In this document: positions 18,520 to 29,664 of the stretch, one piece after another | How positions within the stretch are numbered: position 1 is the stretch's first letter | How the letters are laid out: each line of letters starts with the position of its first letter | NCBI GenBank assembly: GCA_964429225.1 | Contig: CAYSAW010000002.1 | Location: 33,293 to 97,292, forward strand | DNA: 64,000 nt | Direction of reading: 5' to 3' | DNA from: an uncultured bacterium | GTDB taxonomy: Bacteria; Armatimonadota; DTGP01; CAYSAW01 | The notes under the pieces: generated by a model | Seen by the model: only the letters and a program-made list of their open reading frames with translations | What the model was told of the DNA's origin: nothing | The model's database searches: none | Made by a program: the position numbers and the translations under genes

Positions 18520-19488
18520 CTAGGGAAGAGAATGAACAGTTTCCCACCAAATAAGCCCAGCAGAGGTTAAGGCCCAGAGTACAACGGTGATAAGGAGGGG
18601 ATAATCCTTTAAAAGGAGGTCTGTGGGAGATCCTCCCTCCCCCTTCTGGAGAAGGAGATAGAGGTAGCGGAAGAGACCATAGAAGACATAAGGCAAAGTG
18701 ATCCACATATAAGGATGACGATAGGTATGAGGGGCGGACCCTGGCGCAAAAGTAAACAGAACGTAGCTCATTAAGGCTCCGGTGGTCACCAGAAGGATTA
18801 ACGTGTCCAAAAAGGAGACAGAATACTCCTCCAGCAAAGAGCGATGGGCAACCGGAGTTTTCAGAGATATTATCTCTTGCCTCCGTTTTCCTAAGCTGAG
18901 GAGCAAGGATAAGAAGACGGTACACATCATCAACCAAGAGGAGACCTCCACCCGGATGACCACTGCCCCTGCAACCGCTCTGAGTACAAAACCGGAAGAA
19001 ATAATCAAAATATCAAGGATCACCACTTCCCGTAAGCCGAAAGAATAGCCCAGATTAAGCAGAAGGTACAAGACCGCTATCGAGAAAAAGAGAGGATCAA
19101 GAAGCCAAGCAATAATAAGAGATAAGGTTAAGATTCCTAGAGAAGCAGGTACCGCCCAAGAAAGAGGGAGCTCTCCAGAGGCTATCGGTCGTTTCCTCTT
19201 CTTAGGGTGATACTGATCTCTCTCTCGATCCCGGCAATCATTAATGATATAAAGACCTCCTGAAAGGAGGCAATAATCCAAAGCAGTGGTTATAGTACGC
19301 AAGAGATCAGACCAATAAACAAACCGGGCAGTGAAGATCAAGCCAGCGAAGACAACCAAATTTTTGGTCCATTGAGTGGGACGGAGGGAGAGAAAGAGGA
19401 GATACAAAAGTCGGAGAGGGTTTCTACCCATTTTTTCGGGACCAATCGTAACCAATTTCCGGGTCGTTCCAGGGGCGGCGTAGTTCAT
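18520..19488 (-). CDS. UbiA-family decaprenyl-phosphate phosphoribosyltransferase-like enzyme (DPPR synthase-like)
   Basis: LRPTQWTKNLVVFAGLIF...YIINDCRDRERDQYHPKKRKRPIASGEL. The NDxxDxxxD plus HPxKxxRPIASG pattern is characteristic of the DPPR synthase subgroup of UbiA. A possible internal start at 19431 would reduce the overlap with the upstream gene. Confidence 0.7.
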   Translation of the reverse strand: MNYAAPGTTRKLVTIGPEKMGRNPLRLLYLLFLSLRPTQWTKNLVVFAGLIFTARFVYWSDLLRTITTALDYCLLSGGLYIINDCRDRERDQYHPKKRKRPIASGELPLSWAVPASLGILTLSLIIAWLLDPLFFSIAVLYLLLNLGYSFGLREVVILDILIISSGFVLRAVAGAVVIRVEVSSWLMMCTVFLSLLLSLGKRRQEIISLKTPVAHRSLLEEYSVSFLDTLILLVTTGALMSYVLFTFAPGSAPHTYRHPYMWITLPYVFYGLFRYLYLLLQKGEGGSPTDLLLKDYPLLITVVLWALTSAGLIWWETVHSLP

Positions 19489-19909
19489 CAGGTTGCTGAT
19501 AATTATAAGGTTCTGTCACCACATTAATGACAATCGCTTCTTCAGGACTAATACCTTTCCAACCGTGCCAGACGCCGGCTGGGATATGGACCAGGCAGGG
19601 GTTATGCTCCCCGATAAAAAACTCATTCAGCTGACCATAAGTAGAGCTCTCTTCGCGCCCATCCCAAAGAACCAGTTTGATCATCCCTTTGACACAACAG
19701 ACATTATCACTTTGGAGGCGATGGCAATGCCAGGCTTTCACCACGTCAAAATAATTCGTCGTCATATATACCTGGCCAAATTTCTCGAACTCAGGGTCAT
19801 CGCAACGGAGGATCTCCATCAATCGGCCCCGCTCATCGGGAATCACCTTTAGCCTCTTGACCCTCACTCCCTCAATGAGGGAGAAAGACATCTTCTCCTC
19901 CCTTGCCAT
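19424..19909 (-). CDS. dTDP-4-dehydrorhamnose 3,5-epimerase-like cupin (RmlC family)
   Basis: VIPDERGRLMEIL motif (RmlC DERG signature), cupin fold. 161 aa. Confidence 0.75.
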   Translation of the reverse strand: MAREEKMSFSLIEGVRVKRLKVIPDERGRLMEILRCDDPEFEKFGQVYMTTNYFDVVKAWHCHRLQSDNVCCVKGMIKLVLWDGREESSTYGQLNEFFIGEHNPCLVHIPAGVWHGWKGISPEEAIVINVVTEPYNYQQPDELRRPWNDPEIGYDWSRKNG

Positions 19910-19920
19910 AAAAACCTCTC

Positions 19921-20985
19921 CTAGGCTAGCTCCACCTTACTATCATCCCCCAGGGTAAAGCGGTAGGCTTTAGGTTTATCCTTTCCCCGAAGGATCCTCA
20001 CATTTTTCCCCATTAGAGAATCCTCAATCCGAACTTCTACGGATATGGAACTCCCTTCCAAGATAATACTATGCTCAATCTCCGCCTTTTCGATCATCAC
20101 ATTGTCACTAATACTGGTATAAGGACCAATATAAGCATCAATAAGCCGGCAATTTTTGCCAATGTAACAAGGGCCTCGGAGGGTAGAGCGAATGAGTTGG
20201 GTTCCTTCCTCTACTACCACCCGACCGGTAAGGGTGGAAAACTCGTCTTTCACTCCCCGGAAGGAGGGTTGTAGAGTATCTAAAACAGTGTAATTGGCCT
20301 GAAGAATATCATCCTTCTTGCCTGTATCCAGCCACCAACCCTCTAAAATATGGGCTTGTACCCGATAACCGTGGTCAATAAGCCACTGAATGGCATCCGT
20401 AATTTCTAGCTCACCCCGCCAAGAAGGGCGGATCTCCCGGACCGCTTGATGAATACAAGGGCTAAAAAGGTAAACTCCTACCAAAGCATAGCGTGACCGA
20501 GGCTTGGGGGGCTTCTCCTCCAGCCGGACCACTCGACCGTCCGGTCCCAGCTCAGCCACTCCAAAAGCTGAAGGGTTAGCCACCTCTTTCAACAAGATCA
20601 GGGCGTCAGGCTTCAGGCGTTCAAATTCCTCTACAAATTGTTTAACCCCTTCTTGGATCAAATTATCCCCTAAGAACATCACAAAGGGTTCCTCCCCAAG
20701 GAAATCTCGAGCAATCAACACCGCATGAGCTAATCCTTTCGGCTCAGGCTGATGAATATACTCGATCTCAACCCCCCAACGCGAGCCATCCCCTACCGCC
20801 GACATCACCTCCTGACGAGTATCCCCAACAATCATCCCTATCTTTTGAATACCCGCCTCCTTAAGAGCCTCAATAGCATAGAAAAGAATCGGTTTCCCTG
20901 CCACCGGAAGCAGCTGCTTTGCAGAGGTATAAGTCAGAGGGCGTATCCGGGTTCCCTTACCACCTGCCAAGATGAAACCTTTCAT
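19921..20985 (-). CDS. Sugar-1-phosphate nucleotidyltransferase, long form with C-terminal left-handed beta-helix (glucose-1-phosphate thymidylyltransferase-like)
   Basis: MKGFILAGGKGTRIRPLTYTSAKQLLPVAGKPIL, a nucleotidyltransferase G-loop. The C-terminal 120 aa has hexapeptide-repeat character. 354 aa. Confidence 0.85.
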   Translation of the reverse strand: MKGFILAGGKGTRIRPLTYTSAKQLLPVAGKPILFYAIEALKEAGIQKIGMIVGDTRQEVMSAVGDGSRWGVEIEYIHQPEPKGLAHAVLIARDFLGEEPFVMFLGDNLIQEGVKQFVEEFERLKPDALILLKEVANPSAFGVAELGPDGRVVRLEEKPPKPRSRYALVGVYLFSPCIHQAVREIRPSWRGELEITDAIQWLIDHGYRVQAHILEGWWLDTGKKDDILQANYTVLDTLQPSFRGVKDEFSTLTGRVVVEEGTQLIRSTLRGPCYIGKNCRLIDAYIGPYTSISDNVMIEKAEIEHSIILEGSSISVEVRIEDSLMGKNVRILRGKDKPKAYRFTLGDDSKVELA

Positions 20986-21538: not shown

Positions 21539-22168
21539 ATGAAAACACGCAAAGGTTTTACCCTGATCGAGCTCCTTGTTGTTATCGCTATCATCGCTAT
21601 TCTTGCTGCCATTCTCTTTCCGGTTTTCGCTTCGGCCCGTGAGAAAGCCCGGGCAACCAGCTGTATGAATAACCTGAAACAGATGGGGGTGGCGATCCTC
21701 CAATACGCCCAAGACTGGGACGAAAATTTCCCTAGTGGTCACTTCATCCAGCAGTCCGGGGAGGCTGGCCAAAAGGAAACCAATTGGCAAGAAGCTCTGC
21801 TATCTTATCACCGAAGCTGGGATATTTACCGCTGCCCTTCTGACCCCTCCGACTTCCGGAGTAGCTACCTCCTCAACGGATGGTACTCCGACGAAATTGA
21901 GGGAACAAAACGCTCTTTAGGTGACATTCGCCGCCCCTCGGAGAGTATCATTATTGTGGAGCGAGACCACAATGCGGCAATCCAGTTGGGGGATCCTGAG
22001 AAGGACGACTACGAACCCTGGCTTCCTTTAAACCAGTGGAGGCCTCTTATCGCAGACCAACGCCATAGCAAAATGGCGAACTACCTGTTTGTAGATGGCC
22101 ACGTCAAGGCCCTTAAGTTCGAGCAAACCTACGATCCCCCACGAGTGGATATGCACAATCCCGGATAA
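21539..22168 (+). CDS. Prepilin-type N-terminal cleavage/methylation domain protein with DUF1559 C-terminus (paralog of 6843..7547)
   Basis: [35 protein letters not shown]-terminal [14 protein letters not shown]. Confidence 0.8.
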
Positions 22169-22199: not shown

Positions 22200-24536
22200 A
22201 TGAGGCAGAGTTGTCGAAAAAAGGGGGTGACTCTTAAGTCACCCCTTTACATCCTTCTCTTACTCTCTCTTTCTCTCCCCTCCCTCTTTTTCTCTAGTTG
22301 TAACCTCAAGCCCCGGGTACAACCCTATCCTCCAGCTCGTAATCAGAGCAAGGAGGAGTGGGTGCTTTCTACTTTCAGCCCTTATCGCCATTATGGAGCC
22401 TATTTAGGAAATGGGTATATGGGTCTAATTGTTGGACCTGATGGTACAGGTATCCCCACAGAGAAGGCAGGTCAATCCCAAATCAGCGGCTTCTACAGCC
22501 AGGAGCATATGGTGGAAACCCCCCGCTGGGGAGGGGTCTATGCCTTCTTAGGAAAACACCCGATTATCCCCTTTGAAACACCTTCAGAGAAAGCTCCTAT
22601 AGAACAGAAAAAAGAACCCCTTAAAGAATATCCCGTTGATCATTACTCTCAACATCTAGACCTCCTCAAGGGAGTTCTGAAGACCTCTTATCTTCACCTC
22701 CCTACCCAAATTCAAGTGAATACTCAATTCTTGATTCACCGAGTATACCCAGGTCTTGCTCTAATAAAAGTGTCCTTCTTCAAGCAAGGATCAGTCAAAC
22801 CTTTAACCCTTCGTGTCCCCTTGCAAAGAGGAAATCCTGAAGGGATGGTTAGTTCCCCTCTTCTGGGAAGGGATCTGAAGACAGGTGATTTCTGGATTGT
22901 AGAGACCACCACGGACGGCAAAAAGTTAGCTACCGTTTGCAGGCTTAGCTCTGAAGACAAACAGTTAACTAGCATCAGGTTGATCCGCCAACCCCGAGGT
23001 TGGATAGCCGAAGTCACCCTCCCTTGGCAGAAAAAGCCAGCTTCACCCCGAAACCACCCCCCGGAAGATAGGGATATTTTTTCTCGTATCAGTCTTCCTT
23101 TTCGGAGAAGAAAACCAGAGCGATTTATAACAGATATCACTAAATGGATTAGTGTAGCAACCTCTTTAGAGGGGCCTGATCCCCTTAAACTAGCCCGTGC
23201 TCAGCTCGAGAAAGCCTGGAGACAGCGTTGGTCCTCTCTGTACGAAGAGCACACAGAAGCTTGGCAGAGGCTCTGGCAAAAGGCCGATATCCACATTATA
23301 GGCCAAGGGGAAAGAACACGAGAAGAGCAACAAATCCTCCGAGCAGGACTGTTTTATCTCCTCAGCAGTGTTCGACCGGGACAAGATCATTCCATCCCCC
23401 CTATGGGCTTATCTAGTCGGGCTTGGGGAGGACATATTTTTTGGGATGCAGATATGTGGATGTTTCCTGTGTTAAGCCTGCTTCACCCCAATCTCGCGCA
23501 TTCTATCGTTGAGTATCGGTGGAAGACCCTGCCTGGAGCGAGGGAGAACGCCCGCAAAGGGGCCGAGGCGGTGAGTACTCGAAGAAAGCCTCCGATCCCT
23601 CCTCCCCCCTACGCTGGGGCTAGCTTTGCCACCGAAAGCGCAGAAACCGGTCGGGAAATAGCCCCAGCTGAATTTCCCCGAGAACGCCACAACGTCTCCG
23701 ACGCTGCGTTGGCCCAGTGGAACTATTACCTCCTTACCGGAGATAAAAAATGGCTGGCTCAAAAAGGCTATCCCGTAATCCAAGCGGCAGCTCAGTACTG
23801 GGCCAGCCGAGTTTGGTATAATCCCAACCGAGACCGCTATGAAATCTTAGGAGTAGTATCCCCCGATGAGACAGCCGGAATCGTGAATAACGACGTTTAT
23901 ACTAACGCAGGAGCCAAGAGAACTCTGGAGGTTGCTATCCGAGCAAGCCAGCTCCTGGGCAAACCCTATCCTCCTCTTTGGAAAAGGATTGCGGAGAAGA
24001 TGTACCTCCCTTACCACCCCCGAGAACACCGGTACATAGAGCATGATGGCTTCCGAGAAGGGCGCCGAATTAAGCAAGCAGATGCTGAATTGATCATCTT
24101 TCCCCTGGGATTACCCATGCGGGAGGAGGTAAAACGGAATACCCTCGAATATCACCAGCGGCGCGTTAGCCCCCGGGGACCAGCGATGACCGATGCCATC
24201 CATTCGATCATTTATGCGGAGCTAGGAGAATGCTCAAAGGCTTACCAATCCTTCCGCAAATCTTTTGAGGAATTCCTCCGCCCCGCCTTTTACCTCTTCT
24301 CAGAAAAGCGCTCCACCGATAACTGCTGTTTCCTGACCGGTTACGCAGGCACTCTAATGGCAGTTCTTTACGGTTTTGGAGGCCTTCGCTTTGACGAACA
24401 AGGGTTGAAAATAAAGCCCTGCCTCCCTCCCCATTGGAAAAAGTTGGAAGTCAAAGGGATTCATTTCCGAGGGAAGGTTTACCGCCTTACCATCGAGCAA
24501 GGTAAACCCTATTGTCTTGAGGAGAAGCCTGCCTAA
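22200..24536 (+). CDS. Glycoside hydrolase family 65-like protein (six-hairpin (alpha/alpha)6 glycosidase/phosphorylase), probable lipoprotein
   Basis: AWGGHIFWDADMWMFP resembles the GH65 central-domain FWDTE(I/T)(F/Y)MxP motif. N-terminal signal with lipobox-like LFFSSC. 778 aa. Confidence 0.65.
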   Translation: MRQSCRKKGVTLKSPLYILLLLSLSLPSLFFSSCNLKPRVQPYPPARNQSKEEWVLSTFSPYRHYGAYLGNGYMGLIVGPDGTGIPTEKAGQSQISGFYSQEHMVETPRWGGVYAFLGKHPIIPFETPSEKAPIEQKKEPLKEYPVDHYSQHLDLLKGVLKTSYLHLPTQIQVNTQFLIHRVYPGLALIKVSFFKQGSVKPLTLRVPLQRGNPEGMVSSPLLGRDLKTGDFWIVETTTDGKKLATVCRLSSEDKQLTSIRLIRQPRGWIAEVTLPWQKKPASPRNHPPEDRDIFSRISLPFRRRKPERFITDITKWISVATSLEGPDPLKLARAQLEKAWRQRWSSLYEEHTEAWQRLWQKADIHIIGQGERTREEQQILRAGLFYLLSSVRPGQDHSIPPMGLSSRAWGGHIFWDADMWMFPVLSLLHPNLAHSIVEYRWKTLPGARENARKGAEAVSTRRKPPIPPPPYAGASFATESAETGREIAPAEFPRERHNVSDAALAQWNYYLLTGDKKWLAQKGYPVIQAAAQYWASRVWYNPNRDRYEILGVVSPDETAGIVNNDVYTNAGAKRTLEVAIRASQLLGKPYPPLWKRIAEKMYLPYHPREHRYIEHDGFREGRRIKQADAELIIFPLGLPMREEVKRNTLEYHQRRVSPRGPAMTDAIHSIIYAELGECSKAYQSFRKSFEEFLRPAFYLFSEKRSTDNCCFLTGYAGTLMAVLYGFGGLRFDEQGLKIKPCLPPHWKKLEVKGIHFRGKVYRLTIEQGKPYCLEEKPA

Positions 24537-24541
24537 CCCTC

Positions 24542-26893
24542 TTACCTTGAAGGTTTAACCCCCGAAGTTAAAGAAACGTTCTCCCCCTTAAGGGATAAAC
24601 CCAAGAAAGAGGGGAGGTAAACCAAAGCGGTAGCCCCAGCCAGAACGCCGGCATCATTCAAAAGGGTAGCAGTACCAACCACCGCCAAAAGCCCGCAGAA
24701 GCTTGCCCTCCAAGAGAGATTCTGCCATGCCCGAGGAAAAGCCAACCTCCTTCGCCATAAGCACAGAAGACTTGCTAGAAAGGCCCAAAGAAGAAGCCGG
24801 CTCCAAGGGCTAAAGAGAAAGAGACGGAGATTCATCGAAGCTTTCCTCACAACTATCCGCCAAAACTCAATAAACCCTTCTTGACGCACTCCTTGGAAAG
24901 CGAGGGCTATATGACTGCTTGCCCCTCCCCGATGAAGGTCAACAATGACTACCAGGGCAACAGCGGAGAGAAGGATCAACAACAAAAGAATAAGGTGCTT
25001 TAGCCGGAAGGAGATCCGCATTAAGAGAAGTAGCAAAACCCCCAGACCAAAGGAGGCGGAAAGCACCCCTCCAAACTTGGCACCCCAAGAAGGCCCTCCA
25101 AGAACCACTAAAGAGAGGAGAAGAATACTGAAAGTAAAGAGCTTTATGCCTAAAGTCTCCCGGATCGAGAGAGGAAGAGTAGCTACTAATATTGAGGAAG
25201 CGAGGAAGGCTCCCATCCACTCATTGCCCATCCCGTAATAGCGTGCTCCTTCAATCAAGGAGTAGCTTAAAAGGGTAAAAGGAAGGCGTGGAAACCCTTG
25301 AAAGCCATCTACGAAGGCCGAAAGGATTAGGATACCGGCCGGGAGGAGAAGACTGAGTTCTGGTTTCCCCATTCTCCGAGCGATGAAAAGGCTGAGGAGA
25401 ATAGAAAGTATCCAAAGAAAGACGAGAAAAAAGCTATAAGCTTGGACAGAGAAGAGAGGAAACCAAGCAACGAGATAGAAGGACGAAAAGAGGGAAGGGA
25501 CAACGAACCAGAGAAGAAGAGGAATACGAAACCCCTTTAATAGAAAGAGGCTTAGGAAGAGCATAAAAATCTGTAGGAAAGTAACAACCGGTCGAAGTAA
25601 ACGCCGACGCAGAATCTCTGCTGAAAGTAAGGAGGAGCGGTAAGTACTCAACTCTGAAACCGCATCCGAGGAGAAAAAAGCCCTCAGAGGACGGCCCACC
25701 ATTACATTAGGAACAGGGATATGAAACCATTCTAGGATGGTCGGTGCAATATCAGTATTTGCCACTACTCCCCTTTGGCGAGTAGTGGCACTCGTGAGTA
25801 TCCCCCTCCGTTGACCATCTATAAGAATCACCGGGGTGAGGGAGTCAAAGCTAAGCCTAGCCCTCCGAGAAGGGTAGGGTACAAGAAATATTAGGAGATC
25901 TCGGTTAGGGCGATAAAGCTTTTCTAATTCCTGAAGGAAAACATCCAAACGTTGCAAGGCTCTTTCTCGCTCTTGGACAAGGCGTTGTTCCTCCCACTTC
26001 TCTGAAGCCTTGTCCAACCGGGCAGTATCCCCCCACTCTATGAGCAAAAGATGACAACGTTTCAACCCTTCCTGAGTCGCTTGAAAATAAGCCTTTGGAT
26101 CACAAGCAACTCCATCAGGGCTTGAAGGGTCTTGGCTCAAAAGCTCCTCTTCTCCTTTATAAAAGAAAACTGTCCCTCTTTGGTCCATAACCGAAAGAGC
26201 TGGTTCCCGGCCTTCTTCCTCCGGGTTTCCTCCCCCCCCTACTAAACCTGCTTTCACCCCTTGCCCTTGGAGAAGAGTCCCCAGGATACCCAAATCCGTC
26301 CGATAGCTCAACCGGTTGTTAATCTCTTTGAGGAGATCAATGCTAGGAAGTAACAAACCCTGGTCTTCCCTCCCCTCTTTGGAGGTAAAGGGAGGGGGAC
26401 GGAGGCTATCTCTCAGGTATTTTTCTCTTCCCGTAGCGGTATCCACTTTTTCAGAAGGGAGGTAGAATCGAGCAAGGTTCTGGGGTGCAAAACAACGGGT
26501 TCCTGCTCCTAAAGTAAGATAAGCGCTTGCTCTAAAGTTATCATAATTCTTATCAGAAGGAGAAGGAATCCGTACGCTAGCTACTCGGGTATTCATCATC
26601 CCCAAGGCACCTCGACGGATCCATTCCTGTAACCCAGGAAGAGGCTTTCGGAAGAGATCGGAAAAGCTGACCGCCGGAACAGAGAGGAGGATACATCGCT
26701 TAGGAGGTTGAGAGCTCCCCGAGGGATCACTGAGCGGAGTTGGAGAAGAAGGATTTCCCATACCCCAGCAAGCTGAAACCAAACTTAAGAAGATCCCTAA
26801 GAAAGGCCCGAAAAGGCTTTTAGGAAAAAGAGCAAGAAGAAAGCCTTGATCCGTAGGCATCTCCTCTAAAAAATTAGCGCAGGACTTCCTCAT
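24542..26893 (-). CDS. Fusion protein: N-terminal alkaline-phosphatase-superfamily (sulfatase/phosphotransferase-like) domain plus C-terminal polytopic membrane domain
   Basis: VANTDIAPTILEWFHIPVP motif (the DIAPTIL metal-site motif of the AlkP/sulfatase/PglZ superfamily) at around aa 380. About 12 predicted TM helices follow. Overlaps the upstream GT4 gene by 20 bp, suggesting one operon. Confidence 0.65.
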   Translation of the reverse strand: MRKSCANFLEEMPTDQGFLLALFPKSLFGPFLGIFLSLVSACWGMGNPSSPTPLSDPSGSSQPPKRCILLSVPAVSFSDLFRKPLPGLQEWIRRGALGMMNTRVASVRIPSPSDKNYDNFRASAYLTLGAGTRCFAPQNLARFYLPSEKVDTATGREKYLRDSLRPPPFTSKEGREDQGLLLPSIDLLKEINNRLSYRTDLGILGTLLQGQGVKAGLVGGGGNPEEEGREPALSVMDQRGTVFFYKGEEELLSQDPSSPDGVACDPKAYFQATQEGLKRCHLLLIEWGDTARLDKASEKWEEQRLVQERERALQRLDVFLQELEKLYRPNRDLLIFLVPYPSRRARLSFDSLTPVILIDGQRRGILTSATTRQRGVVANTDIAPTILEWFHIPVPNVMVGRPLRAFFSSDAVSELSTYRSSLLSAEILRRRLLRPVVTFLQIFMLFLSLFLLKGFRIPLLLWFVVPSLFSSFYLVAWFPLFSVQAYSFFLVFLWILSILLSLFIARRMGKPELSLLLPAGILILSAFVDGFQGFPRLPFTLLSYSLIEGARYYGMGNEWMGAFLASSILVATLPLSIRETLGIKLFTFSILLLSLVVLGGPSWGAKFGGVLSASFGLGVLLLLLMRISFRLKHLILLLLILLSAVALVVIVDLHRGGASSHIALAFQGVRQEGFIEFWRIVVRKASMNLRLFLFSPWSRLLLWAFLASLLCLWRRRLAFPRAWQNLSWRASFCGLLAVVGTATLLNDAGVLAGATALVYLPSFLGLSLKGENVSLTSGVKPSR

Positions 26894-28028
26894 ATACCCG
26901 TACCGTCTCCTGGATCATCCGGTTTGCGGAACGCTCTTGAGATACGAAGGTAAAGGCCTGCTTTACAAGGGTCTGCCGGAGATCCTCGTTCCGCCAGAGA
27001 CGGAGAATAGCTGCCGCTAAAGCACTGGGATCTTCTGGAGGGACCAACAAGCCGGTACGCTCGTCCTGAACATTCTCGGTCAACCCTCCCACCTCTGAAG
27101 CGATTACAGGAACTCCTAAAGCCATTGCTTCTAGAGCAACTAGAGATTGCCCTTCTCTTCGGGAGGGGATAAGACAGAGATGACAGCTCTTCAAGAGAGC
27201 TAAAGCATCCTTTCTCCAGCCAAGGAAATAAACTTTCGTCGCTATCCCCAACCGTCCCGCCATTCTCTCCAAATCTTCTCGGTCCGGTCCCTCTCCAATA
27301 ATGAGCAGGCGTGCGGAGGGTAAGATAGGAGCGATAACGCTCCAGGCCTGAAGAGCGATATCCACCCCCTTATCCGGCATTAACCGAGCAACTAACCCCA
27401 CCACCGGCTTATGGACCTCCGGATCGAGCCATTCGGTTAAAGGGGAGGGTTTCAAACTTTGGAGAGAAATCCAATCAATGCCGTTAGGGATTACCCTAAT
27501 CTTTCTTGCAGGAACCCCCGCTTGAAGGAGCGACTGAGCTACTGCATTGCTATTAGCAATAATCCGATGGGCTTTCTTTAACAACCAAATAAGGGTCCAC
27601 CGAGTCAAGAAAGAAACGCTTTTCGGGAATAAGTTATGAGCGGAAGCCACCCATTTCCAAGCCTTGGGAAGCCGAGCCAAGCCTACAATTACCGCAGCGC
27701 GATACCCATGGGAATGAAGGATTCCCCCCTCTTGGGAGGCAGATAGGATTTGAGCATAAAGTTGCCGAGAAGCCCTTCGATCGCGCAAGAAGGAGGAACG
27801 GTCCTCGATAGAAACAGAATGAAAAGGAAGGTCTGGGAGCTTCTGATACCCCCAAAACGCCTTCTTAACGAGGTCAGGGCCTGCCAGCTCAACCTGCCAT
27901 CGGCTCTCCCTGCGGATTCCCTGAATGAGAATCCGCAGGTGCTGGAGAATCCCTCCTTGAGCAGGACGGAGAAGATGGACCACTCGGATGGGAGAGGAAA
28001 AGGGAAGAGAGGAGTTCTTTTCTGGCAT
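26874..28028 (-). CDS. Glycosyltransferase family 4 (GT-B fold)
   Basis: C-terminal GT4 signature region: LIPSRREGQSLVALEAMALGVPVIASEVGGLTENV...TGLLVPPEDPSALA (E-X7-E motif). Confidence 0.85.
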   Translation of the reverse strand: MPEKNSSLPFSSPIRVVHLLRPAQGGILQHLRILIQGIRRESRWQVELAGPDLVKKAFWGYQKLPDLPFHSVSIEDRSSFLRDRRASRQLYAQILSASQEGGILHSHGYRAAVIVGLARLPKAWKWVASAHNLFPKSVSFLTRWTLIWLLKKAHRIIANSNAVAQSLLQAGVPARKIRVIPNGIDWISLQSLKPSPLTEWLDPEVHKPVVGLVARLMPDKGVDIALQAWSVIAPILPSARLLIIGEGPDREDLERMAGRLGIATKVYFLGWRKDALALLKSCHLCLIPSRREGQSLVALEAMALGVPVIASEVGGLTENVQDERTGLLVPPEDPSALAAAILRLWRNEDLRQTLVKQAFTFVSQERSANRMIQETVRVYEEVLR

Positions 28029-28131: not shown

Positions 28132-29664
28132 TTGTCAACCCTAAGGTGCTGTCTTTCCATCATTGGTATTCTGTTAATGACCCTCCTTCTCCCTTCAGGC
28201 TCAAAGGGGAGGGATGGTGCTGGAGGTATAAGGAGGGTACTTTTCCCTCCCCGGCTTCCACCAGCACAAAATTCCTCTCCTGGCCCCCTTGTGGAAGATA
28301 CTCCAAAGCCTTTACTCACTTCGGAGGAGGAAGCAGAAACCCTATTCTATTGGATAGGGCGCGTCAACCTTACTCACCTTGCTCTCCTCTCTGGTATGGG
28401 AGAACCTGCTCAATTCAGTACTGAAACTCTTCGAAGGCTAACTACCCTCTTAAAGACAGAAATTCCCTCAGGTTACTCTCTACTCCAGAATGTTTATCCC
28501 TCCTCCTATCCGTTATTGGCCTCTCAACCGGTAGCAACTAAGAGAGAAAGTTGGCGATGGACACCTGCTCAATTTGAAAAGAGTTACAATCCCGAAGCCA
28601 TCGCCCTAACCATCGTGAAGTTGGCCCAACCTCAGTTCCACCTCCAATACCACGATACTCCTGAGGATCAGAAAGAAGCCATCTTGGGATTAGCCAGTGC
28701 TATGGAGATGGCAAGCTTCCTCTACAACCGCTTGCGCGATGAGAAAGGACAATTTATCGCTCTTCCGCCTCATCCGAAAGCCCCTCCTGTCCGCTACCAA
28801 TCCGTTTGCCTTTGGGCTTTTTGTGCCCTGCTCTACCTCACCCAGGAAAAACAAGACAACTACTTTCATCGGTCTGCAAAGGAGATTCTCGACGCAAAAG
28901 CCCTTAAAAAGTGGGCAGAAAGGGCTTTCCAAACCCTGAGTCAAAGGGATTTCTCTTCAGTGGAGGATTTATCTTTAGCAATAGAATCGGTCGCTTGGTT
29001 TTCAGCGGTCTCCGAGGAAGCCTCCCGAAAGAAGGCTTTAGCTTTACTCAGCACTTTCGGTGAGAAAGTTCTGAGCTTGCCAGCAAGAACTCTGCAAGCC
29101 TTAGGGTTTAAAATCTACGCCCTCTACGAAGTCTACCGAGCTACCCGACGAGAATCCTTCCAGAAAGGGGCGGATTTCCTAATCACTAAAGAGTTAGAAC
29201 AATTTTGGAGGGAGGAAGCGGGTGCTTATCTGGAAAAATCAGGGGAAACCCTTTATACCCTTTGGCAAGCTGCTAGTCTCATGATGGCCCTCAATGCTGG
29301 CCGGCAATTCGGAAGCCCAGAGGCCCGGCAATTAGCTCGCTCCCGCTTTATCACCCTAGGGGAGACGCTCTTTTTGCGCTCCGGTCTCCAACGAGCCTCC
29401 GGGGTAGAGTTAATCCCAGAGGTTTACCGCCGCGAAGTTGCTCTTTTAGAGAAAGTAGACCGTATTTTACCTCGATCGAGTGACCTTAAGGAGGCTCCGG
29501 TATTCCGGGCTGGGGTTCGCTATATCGAAGGCCGATGGCAGATTCAATCGGGGCGCTTTATTACCGCACCGGCTATGTTGCTAGCCATTGCTTTGGCACC
29601 CAAAACAGGTCTCTCCCCCGATGGTTTTTCCCCTGCTCACCGCCTGAGACCCCCCTCCCCTTAA
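28132..29664 (+). CDS. Hypothetical secreted protein (510 aa)
   Basis: N-terminal hydrophobic signal (IIGILLMTLLLPSGS). No recognisable motif. Transcribed divergently from the GT4/AlkP-membrane operon. Confidence 0.5.
   Translation: MSTLRCCLSIIGILLMTLLLPSGSKGRDGAGGIRRVLFPPRLPPAQNSSPGPLVEDTPKPLLTSEEEAETLFYWIGRVNLTHLALLSGMGEPAQFSTETLRRLTTLLKTEIPSGYSLLQNVYPSSYPLLASQPVATKRESWRWTPAQFEKSYNPEAIALTIVKLAQPQFHLQYHDTPEDQKEAILGLASAMEMASFLYNRLRDEKGQFIALPPHPKAPPVRYQSVCLWAFCALLYLTQEKQDNYFHRSAKEILDAKALKKWAERAFQTLSQRDFSSVEDLSLAIESVAWFSAVSEEASRKKALALLSTFGEKVLSLPARTLQALGFKIYALYEVYRATRRESFQKGADFLITKELEQFWREEAGAYLEKSGETLYTLWQAASLMMALNAGRQFGSPEARQLARSRFITLGETLFLRSGLQRASGVELIPEVYRREVALLEKVDRILPRSSDLKEAPVFRAGVRYIEGRWQIQSGRFITAPAMLLAIALAPKTGLSPDGFSPAHRLRPPSP

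Follow-up and report, generated by a model that had tools for sequence, protein, structure and literature searches.

A GT4-linked gene family from Armatimonadota and other bacteria with an AlkP-fold ectodomain and a putative glycan-transferase membrane domain

A stretch of 64,000 nucleotides (nt) from an uncultured bacterium of the Armatimonadota (GenBank assembly GCA_964429225.1, contig CAYSAW010000002.1, positions 33,293 to 97,292) was analysed; this whole stretch is referred to as the window. It contains a two-gene unit on the minus strand that encodes a GT4 glycosyltransferase and a second protein, the target, in which an outward-facing domain with the fold of the alkaline phosphatase (AlkP) superfamily is followed by 11 transmembrane (TM) helices. 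The two genes may form a small module for a cell-envelope glycan, with the 11-helix domain as an outward-acting lipid-linked-glycan transferase and a non-catalytic ectodomain. We regard the case for this reading as evenly balanced. It builds on the two folds and on the topology of the protein, the pattern of conservation, the linkage of the genes and a set of gene fusions. The architecture is new but is composed of known folds.

Membrane domain and its outward face

The target was modelled with AlphaFold2 from an alignment of 19 homologues (pLDDT 83.7, pTM 0.84). The model comprises an alpha/beta domain (residues 62-410), a long helix starting at residue 411 and 11 TM helices, which hydropathy and the model place between residues 433 and 767. 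The initial annotation, made from the sequence of the window, had described about 12 TM helices behind a DIAPTIL-type motif. A C-terminal TM block is indeed present, with a count of 11 helices, and the motif (TDIAPTIL, residues 380-387, nt 25733-25756) lies in the N-terminal soluble half as described.

The short loops of the membrane domain alternate in charge. Averaged over the family, the numbers of Lys and Arg residues are 3.19, 1.25, 1.21, 1.64 and 2.38 in the inside loops and 0.35, 0.26 and 0.01 in the outside loops. According to the positive-inside rule, the ectodomain is therefore outside and the 11 TM helices end with the C-terminus inside. Both long loops, TM4-TM5 (532-556) and TM8-TM9 (655-695), are located outside. 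The outward orientation of the soluble domain, a point that the initial annotation had left to topology prediction, is also indicated by an N-terminal hydrophobic segment that was absent from that description and is present in 161 of 166 family members. The soluble domain precedes a polytopic membrane domain, opposite to the order in EptA, LtaS, MCR-1 and PbgA. This reversed order had been proposed before and holds for either of two possible start codons, since the TM block remains C-terminal with both. Judged from its sequence, the segment around Cys42 of the target is a probable lipoprotein signal peptide. A lipobox-like motif is found in only 14 of the 166 members; those lacking it resemble ordinary signal peptides or anchors in this region. 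The lipobox Cys is retained in a homologue with 82% identity (P0002, LASAC).

Conservation was evaluated in an alignment of 170 family representatives. The polar residues R551, N557 and H661 of the membrane domain are 100% conserved, and so is G554. D529 (98%), R683 (98%), K684 (95%) and D747 (99%) follow closely and, taken together with E558 and N746, span 94-99%. Of 79 species genomes, 72 have the complete octet D529-R551-N557-E558-H661-R683-K684-D747; among the other seven, three cases are due to alignment gaps in truncated sequences. In this set of genomes, the AlkP catalytic positions are variable. Both the model and the positive-inside rule place every conserved polar residue of the TM domain on its outer face, either in loops or at outer helix ends. 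Such a pattern is more in keeping with an active site than with a translocation pathway. The view of the TM helices as a mere anchor does not hold, as they are the best-conserved part of the protein and have a predicted structure similar to WaaL and SEDS proteins.

The resemblance of the predicted 11-helix domain to the O-antigen ligase WaaL and to the SEDS proteins RodA and FtsW is assigned with moderate confidence. Fold comparison of the TM model gave WaaL, FtsW and RodA as the closest structures, with Escherichia coli RodA (8tj3_B) at 7.9. Below RodA, the list consists of unrelated helical proteins, most of them aligning over ~150 residues or fewer. A survey of glycosyltransferases that utilise sugar diphospholipids assigns SEDS proteins (GT119) to the same clan as O-antigen ligases (GT121); in these families, all conserved residues face outward and a long conserved extracellular loop is present near the C-terminus (PMC10920833). 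In WaaL, two Arg residues bind undecaprenyl diphosphate (Und-PP) and a His activates the acceptor; in related families this His is replaced by Asp or Glu (PMC10920833). Structural agreement between families of this clan is limited to ~5.3 A over 192 residues (PMC10920833). The target is similar in kind: R551, R683/K684, H661 and D747 are directed outward, and the TM8-TM9 loop is close to the C-terminus. R551, R683 and H661 may correspond to R191, R265 and H313 of WaaL. By analogy, this suggests that the TM8-TM9 loop is the counterpart of the long extracellular loop of the clan. With moderate confidence, the TM domain can be said to work like WaaL and SEDS proteins, while neither sequence nor profiles place it in GT119, GT121 or clan GT-C1; for the target itself, no Pfam match to PF04932, PF13425 or PF01098 was obtained.

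AlkP-fold ectodomain

In the AlphaFold2 model, the soluble domain has the core alpha/beta fold of the AlkP/sulfatase superfamily, and the full-length structures of EptA, LtaS, MCR-1 and PbgA are among its fold-search matches. The target alone reaches at best an insignificant Pfam match (SGSH_C, E=0.016) and nothing significant in NCBIfam. When 65 family members were searched against Pfam, SGSH_C matched weakly in 38 and Metalloenzyme, Sulfatase and Phosphodiest in 6 each, with best E-values of 6.7e-7, 1.7e-4 and 1e-3, respectively. These weak matches across the family, together with the fold, support the superfamily membership stated in the initial annotation. In a search of PDB sequences with the family profile, the matches to iPGM (E 4e-4), sulfatases, LtaS and PafA are confined to the DIAPTIL...G.P..M.G stretch. 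The C-terminal D-I/L-x-P-T helix motif of the superfamily is present as TDIAPTIL, and its D381 is 100% conserved.

The target lacks the canonical machinery for phospho- or sulfotransfer, which the family does not preserve as a unit. The acidic metal ligand after strand beta1 is replaced by Pro73 (family column: D 55%, P 18%, N 15%). The best candidate for the nucleophile is Val104, a position occupied by T/S in 79% of the family and placed by eye relative to the motifs of iPGM, NPP and sulfatases, not by a residue-level structural alignment. Ile109 is also found in this region, which contains no invariant column. After strand 332-337, where the Asp-His pair is expected, S/T338-P339-x-P341 is present throughout the family. 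No conserved His or Cys was found among residues 60-410 (the top His columns have 51/170 and 43/170). Furthermore, the clade of the target has Gly220 and Gly222 at the family-conserved N220 and D222. The presence of D73 is not correlated with that of T/S104 (Fisher p = 0.35), and a division of the family into enzymes and pseudoenzymes by joint loss of both residues was rejected on this basis. A weak association between D73 and an adjacent GT4 gene (p = 0.04, uncorrected for phylogeny) is not relied on.

An insertion of 11 residues (PSDKNYDNFRA, residues 112-122, 26528-26560 on the minus strand) occupies the loop of the target in which the AlkP nucleophile would be expected and is found in ~5/170 representatives. 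The pLDDT of the model is below 50 at residues 108-115.

The initial annotation had proposed a phosphotransferase function for the target, which is poorly supported in view of these substitutions. We consider it distinctly unlikely that the ectodomain is an active metal-dependent phospho- or sulfotransferase of the LtaS/EptA/OpgB type, which would transfer a lipid head group to a glycan that the GT4 enzyme helps to make, with the TM helices as an anchor presenting the lipid. The ectodomain faces outward as in these enzymes, D73 and T/S104 are retained in the proportions given above, D289, E/D286, D222 and D237 are 87-94% conserved, and it is some family members that reach the Metalloenzyme E-value of 6.7e-7. 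The target itself, however, has Pro73, Val104, Gly220 and Gly222, and the whole family has S/T-P-x-P in place of the Asp-His pair and a soluble domain devoid of conserved His or Cys. The independent occurrence of D73 and T/S104 is unlike that of a site which is either intact or dead. In addition, the TM domain is conserved beyond the needs of an anchor, with its conserved residues outside the bilayer core.

The ectodomain has a conserved set of its own, consisting of G-D289-x-x-R292, L-T-S368-x-T-T371-R-R and D381 (S368, T371 and D381 95-100% conserved). Residues of this set would form the second site of a bifunctional enzyme, in which a WaaL/SEDS-like domain transfers the glycan while a non-canonical AlkP-fold site (D289, R292, S368, T370-T371, R372-R373) cleaves or forms a phosphodiester. 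The outcome might be the release of the carrier pyrophosphate or a sugar-phosphate linkage of the teichoic-acid type. AlkP-fold enzymes typically act on phosphate or sulfate esters, and GD..R (D289, R292) and LTSxTTRR are 92-98% conserved and kept in the target. This conservation could equally be explained by a domain interface or by substrate binding, and we know of no AlkP-superfamily enzyme that functions in the absence of the acidic beta1 ligand and the Asp-His pair. A bifunctional enzyme is very unlikely.

Gene pair, family and locus

The upstream gene was identified as a GT4 glycosyltransferase in the initial annotation, and Pfam matches (Glyco_trans_1_4 5e-39, Glycos_transf_1 1.2e-36, Glyco_transf_4 7e-19) and an EX7E motif (EGQSLVALE, residue 292) bear this out. 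The GT-B fold domains Glyco_transf_4 and Glycos_transf_1 together with EX7E characterise the enzyme as a member of GT4. No TM segment is evident when the translation is read by eye. No NCBIfam equivalog model matched above its cutoff; the best matches were stp2, BshA and MshA-like models. The nearest named relatives of this GT4 belong to the Armatimonadota.

Both open reading frames (ORFs) are present and overlap by 20 nt, as initially annotated, if the target starts at ATG 26893. With the other possible start there is no overlap: the identical protein in the public gene call (P0001, 772 aa) begins at Met12 (ATG 26860), leaving a gap of 13 nt. The target gene and the GT4 gene are tightly coupled on one strand whichever start applies. 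The sequence GAGGAG immediately precedes the Met12 codon (region 26860-26893, minus strand). Homologue P0002 has Val at the position of Met12, and its public call begins at the upstream Met.

When 1.84 billion cluster representatives (50% identity) were searched with the family profile, 6,989 family clusters were obtained at E <= 0.001 and 3,640 at E <= 1e-30. Most of these proteins have 700-800 aa and the architecture of the target. No model of the family was found in Pfam (2025 copy) or NCBIfam release 20, the listed source names are all 'hypothetical protein', and a literature search found neither the combination and order of the domains nor the family-specific motifs or the family itself. 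Relatives in at least 561 species genomes were confirmed by a genome scan with the GAR[YF]YGxGNE motif and a 9-sequence alignment, and 80 loci were kept. Among the matches listed, the closest relative is from an Armatimonadota metagenome-assembled genome (34% identity) and most relatives are from Bacillota (Alkaliphilus, Thermoanaerobacterium, Caldanaerobacter, Carboxydothermus, Desulforudis, Brevibacillus and Ammoniphilus; also Paenibacillus), with some from Actinomycetota, Armatimonadota and Atribacteria. The Clostridia and Bacilli concerned include cultivated organisms.

The proposed co-operonic link to a GT4 gene is real and is conserved across phyla. A homologous GT4 gene on the same strand is located beside the family gene in 38/80 loci by tblastn and in 31/79 by strict adjacency, in genomes of Armatimonadota, Bacillota and Atribacteria. 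It is usually upstream and sometimes downstream, and in the closest relatives the stop codon of one gene overlaps with the start codon of the other. Stand-alone copies of the family gene are found in Ammoniphilus, Syntrophomonas and Paenibacillus.

In 12 Clostridia loci that lack an adjacent GT4 gene (mostly of the Alkaliphilus type), a putative aldo-keto reductase gene follows directly downstream on the same strand. This ORF, which was named by reading and not by a profile match, has a C-terminal 4Fe-4S ferredoxin-like extension. The recurrent neighbours alaS, ruvX, RNase J, Fur, aldo-keto reductase and speH, all named from representative sequences and not from profiles, look like lineage synteny and not like partners; for the aldo-keto reductase, a functional link is conceivable. 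A motif scan of the fetched loci for two separate family copies found none. Rv3909 of Mycobacterium tuberculosis, located beside mviN and considered as a possible homologue, was dropped since the literature treats it as a putative outer-membrane protein (PMC6656915). No Mycobacterium locus is among the 80 loci kept.

The strongest functional clue comes from fusions in which a GT2 glycosyltransferase, a flippase for lipid-linked glycans and the family domain are combined in one polypeptide. P0040 (2,394 aa) consists of a MurJ flippase (PF03023, 1.5e-55), a family copy, a GT2 domain and a second family copy. P0035, P0036 and P0039 (~1,780 aa) contain two family copies flanking a GT2 domain, and in P0034 two family copies are arranged in tandem. 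The nearest models for the fused GT2, all below cutoff, are AglJ (3e-25), GpgS, PpgS (2.7e-15) and a dolichyl-phosphate hexose transferase. Apart from GpgS, these enzymes load a sugar onto polyprenyl phosphate. With a sugar-loading GT2 and MurJ in the same chain, the family domain would therefore supply the outward-facing step. From their composition and the gene neighbourhood of P0040, the long high-GC fusion proteins are apparently actinobacterial. The P0040 gene (L089:8001-15185) is bordered by recN, a SteA-like gene and a MctB-family gene on one side and by pyrG, a NUDIX gene and an integrase-family (xerD-like) gene on the other, an arrangement that we take to be a conserved actinobacterial gene order.

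The fusions also bear on the possibility that the target is a non-enzymatic sensor, chaperone or transporter similar to PbgA/YejM, with an AlkP domain that binds a lipid or glycolipid made by the GT4 enzyme and TM helices that flip, hold or signal. Such a role would be compatible with a module that has no flippase of its own and with a protein that has no sequence-level match to any glycosyltransferase family. In the actinobacterial fusions, however, MurJ is already present, so the family domain adds something else. Moreover, the eight invariant charged or polar residues are clustered in outward loops and not within the membrane, and the top structural matches are enzymes, not transporters. 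A non-enzymatic role is hence rather unlikely.

Features of the two-gene unit in the window (residue numbers refer to the 783-aa form of the target)
Feature	Position	Strand	Description
GT4 glycosyltransferase gene	26874..28028	-	384 aa; first gene of the two-gene unit; Pfam matches and EX7E motif
Target ORF	24542..26893	-	783 aa (ATG 26893) or 772 aa (ATG 26860); signal sequence, AlkP-fold ectodomain, 11-TM domain
N-terminal hydrophobic signal/anchor with lipobox-like LVSAC (Cys42)	26768..26860	-	Residues 12-42; from sequence reading
AlkP-superfamily-fold alpha/beta domain, outward-facing	25664..26710	-	Residues ~62-410
Family signature LTSATTRQ...TDIAPTIL	25733..25798	-	Residues 366-387
Polytopic membrane domain	24593..25663	-	Residues 411-767; long pre-membrane helix and 11 TM helices; N-terminus outside, C-terminus inside
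Outer end of TM4 and TM4-TM5 outside loop	25220..25309	-	D529, GARYYGMGNE (R551, Y553, G554, N557, E558)
Long outside loop TM8-TM9	24809..24931	-	Residues 655-695, two short helices; H661, R683, K684, N688
Outside turn NDAG, TM10-TM11	24647..24658	-	N746, D747, G749

The flanking genes of the pair, a convergent GH65 gene (22200-24536, plus strand) and a divergent ORF (28132-29664, plus strand), are on the opposite strand; therefore, the unit consists of the target gene and the GT4 gene only. The stop codon of the GH65 gene, which encodes a glycoside hydrolase or phosphorylase of this family, is separated from that of the target by 5 nt, a distance into which a terminator cannot fit. The divergent ORF (510 aa, with an N-terminal hydrophobic segment) shares an intergenic region of ~100 nt with the GT4 gene and gave no match in a Pfam search. 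A scan for promoters and terminators of the two-gene operon performed no better than on shuffled sequence, and Rfam and tRNA scans revealed nothing near the locus.

Three successive genes on the minus strand (18520-20985), ~3.5 kb from the target gene, encode an RmlA/GlmU-like nucleotidyl-transferase with a hexapeptide domain, a protein similar to dTDP-sugar isomerases/epimerases and a UbiA-family prenyltransferase. They could be a source of activated sugar or lipid carrier for the synthesis of an envelope glycan. At 21539-22168 (plus strand), a protein with a prepilin-type N-methylation motif and DUF1559 is encoded. Genes of this type are associated with Planctomycetota/Verrucomicrobiota and Armatimonadota-like genomes, which fits the closest homologues being from Armatimonadota. 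SEDS or Wzy genes were sought in the window and the fetched loci, and no obvious candidate was present among the polytopic ORFs.

Proposed mechanism and comparison with known systems

What follows on the chemistry, on donor and acceptor and on the part played by each residue is a proposal. With a nucleotide sugar as substrate, the cytoplasmic GT4 enzyme would synthesise or lengthen a membrane-bound glycoconjugate, either a sugar linked to polyprenyl (di)phosphate or a glycolipid acceptor. This product would be flipped by a flippase encoded elsewhere in the genome. The 11-helix domain would carry the active site, built of the outward-facing invariant residues. R551 and R683/K684 may hold the (di)phosphate of the lipid, and the acceptor would be activated by H661, D747, D529 or E558. 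The lipid carrier would then pass its glycan to an acceptor, if the enzyme is a ligase, or to another repeat unit, if it is a polymerase. The AlkP-fold domain, positioned outside above the site, would most likely serve as a non-catalytic lid that binds the substrate, the acceptor or a phosphate-bearing polymer, much as PbgA/YejM binds lipopolysaccharide (LPS).

Several results weigh against a glycan transferase of this kind. Neither an initiating phosphoglycosyltransferase in the window nor a flippase in the module was found; therefore, the donor must come from elsewhere. A Foldseek search of the TM-only model against the PDB gave no significant match (best E 0.24), and RodA 8tj3_B reached a probability of only 0.47 and a TM-score of 0.34. 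Pfam Wzy_C and FtsW/RodA were unmatched in the 65 members searched, and O-antigen_lig was matched once (E 0.36). When the TM profile of the family was aligned with 113 WaaL sequences by hhalign, the probability was 0.5% (E 0.11); this WaaL set is shallow and enterobacterial only. Additionally, the family profile found no WaaL or SEDS chain among PDB sequences at E up to 10. Regarding the ectodomain, 55% of the family have D73 and 79% have T/S104, and D222, D237, D289, R292, S368 and T371 are highly conserved, acidic or polar and family-specific. In the family as a whole, the ectodomain may have a non-canonical catalytic role.

A wider reading is tentative. The family could be a new and large group of outward-acting ligases or polymerases, distantly related to WaaL and SEDS proteins (GT-C1), that recruited an AlkP-fold domain for binding an acceptor or phosphate. 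In members that keep D73 and T104, the AlkP domain is possibly a second catalytic module. In many Clostridia, Bacilli, Actinomycetota and Armatimonadota, the family could provide the missing enzyme for the last step, in which a lipoglycan, a secondary cell-wall polymer or a polymer similar to teichoic acid is attached.

The family is of interest as it is widespread yet unannotated and allows testable predictions of an active site, for which mutants could be made in genetically tractable thermophilic Clostridia. It also illustrates that an AlkP-fold ectodomain can precede a polytopic domain. If the membrane domain is a glycan transferase that depends on a lipid carrier, it represents a new common class of enzymes in envelope biogenesis and points to an unrecognised surface glycoconjugate with a dedicated GT4 enzyme (or GT2 and MurJ). 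With this ectodomain, a second AlkP-fold domain besides that of PbgA/YejM would then have been put to a new use after loss of the catalytic residues.

WaaL (CAZy GT121, Pfam Wzy_C) and RodA/FtsW (GT119) belong to the structural subclass GT-C_B and clan GT-C1. The family of the target has no detectable similarity to these proteins by sequence or profile, and Foldseek does not confirm a match of the folds. The 11 TM helices of the target follow an AlkP-fold ectodomain of ~350 residues, a feature that we know from no described ligase or SEDS protein. The motifs GARYYGxGNE, GANxGG, SHIGR, RKxxMN and NDSG are the family's own.

Compared to LtaS/LtaP, EptA/MCR-1, OpgB (MdoB) and BcsG, the order is reversed, with the ectodomain (62-410) in front of the TM domain (433-767). 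These transferases usually have about five TM helices, in contrast to the 11 of the target. The beta1 ligand and the nucleophile are missing in the target, and the Asp-His pair is missing in the entire family. In this respect the target is comparable to PbgA/YejM, which has an AlkP-fold domain with a degenerate catalytic site and binds LPS. The TM domain of PbgA, however, is N-terminal and has five helices; PbgA has neither a WaaL-like domain nor a GT4 partner and is restricted to the regulation of LPS in Gram-negative bacteria.

TacL of the Gram-positive bacterium Streptococcus pneumoniae is a lipoteichoic-acid ligase of the Wzy_C type that has been proposed to transfer an Und-PP-linked polymer to a glycolipid (PMC5727136). 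It is a Wzy_C protein of 397 aa without such an ectodomain. Near the target gene, no teichoic-acid genes were seen among the scanned ORFs. Given this precedent, a glycolipid acceptor made by the GT4 enzyme is one concrete possibility for the module, and by analogy the GT4 enzyme of the window could produce an acceptor of the TacL type. The pneumococcal glycolipid anchor is presumably made by GT4 enzymes as well.

The actinobacterial fusions resemble the GtrA/GtrB/GtrC and CsbB/GtcA/YfhO systems, which combine a GT2 enzyme that loads polyprenyl phosphate, a flippase and an outward polytopic transferase. The transferases of those systems, however, are of the GT-C_A type with an N-terminal TM domain, and their flippase is GtrA-like, whereas that of the fusions is MurJ. 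In the window, the partner of the target is a GT4 and not a GT2 enzyme.

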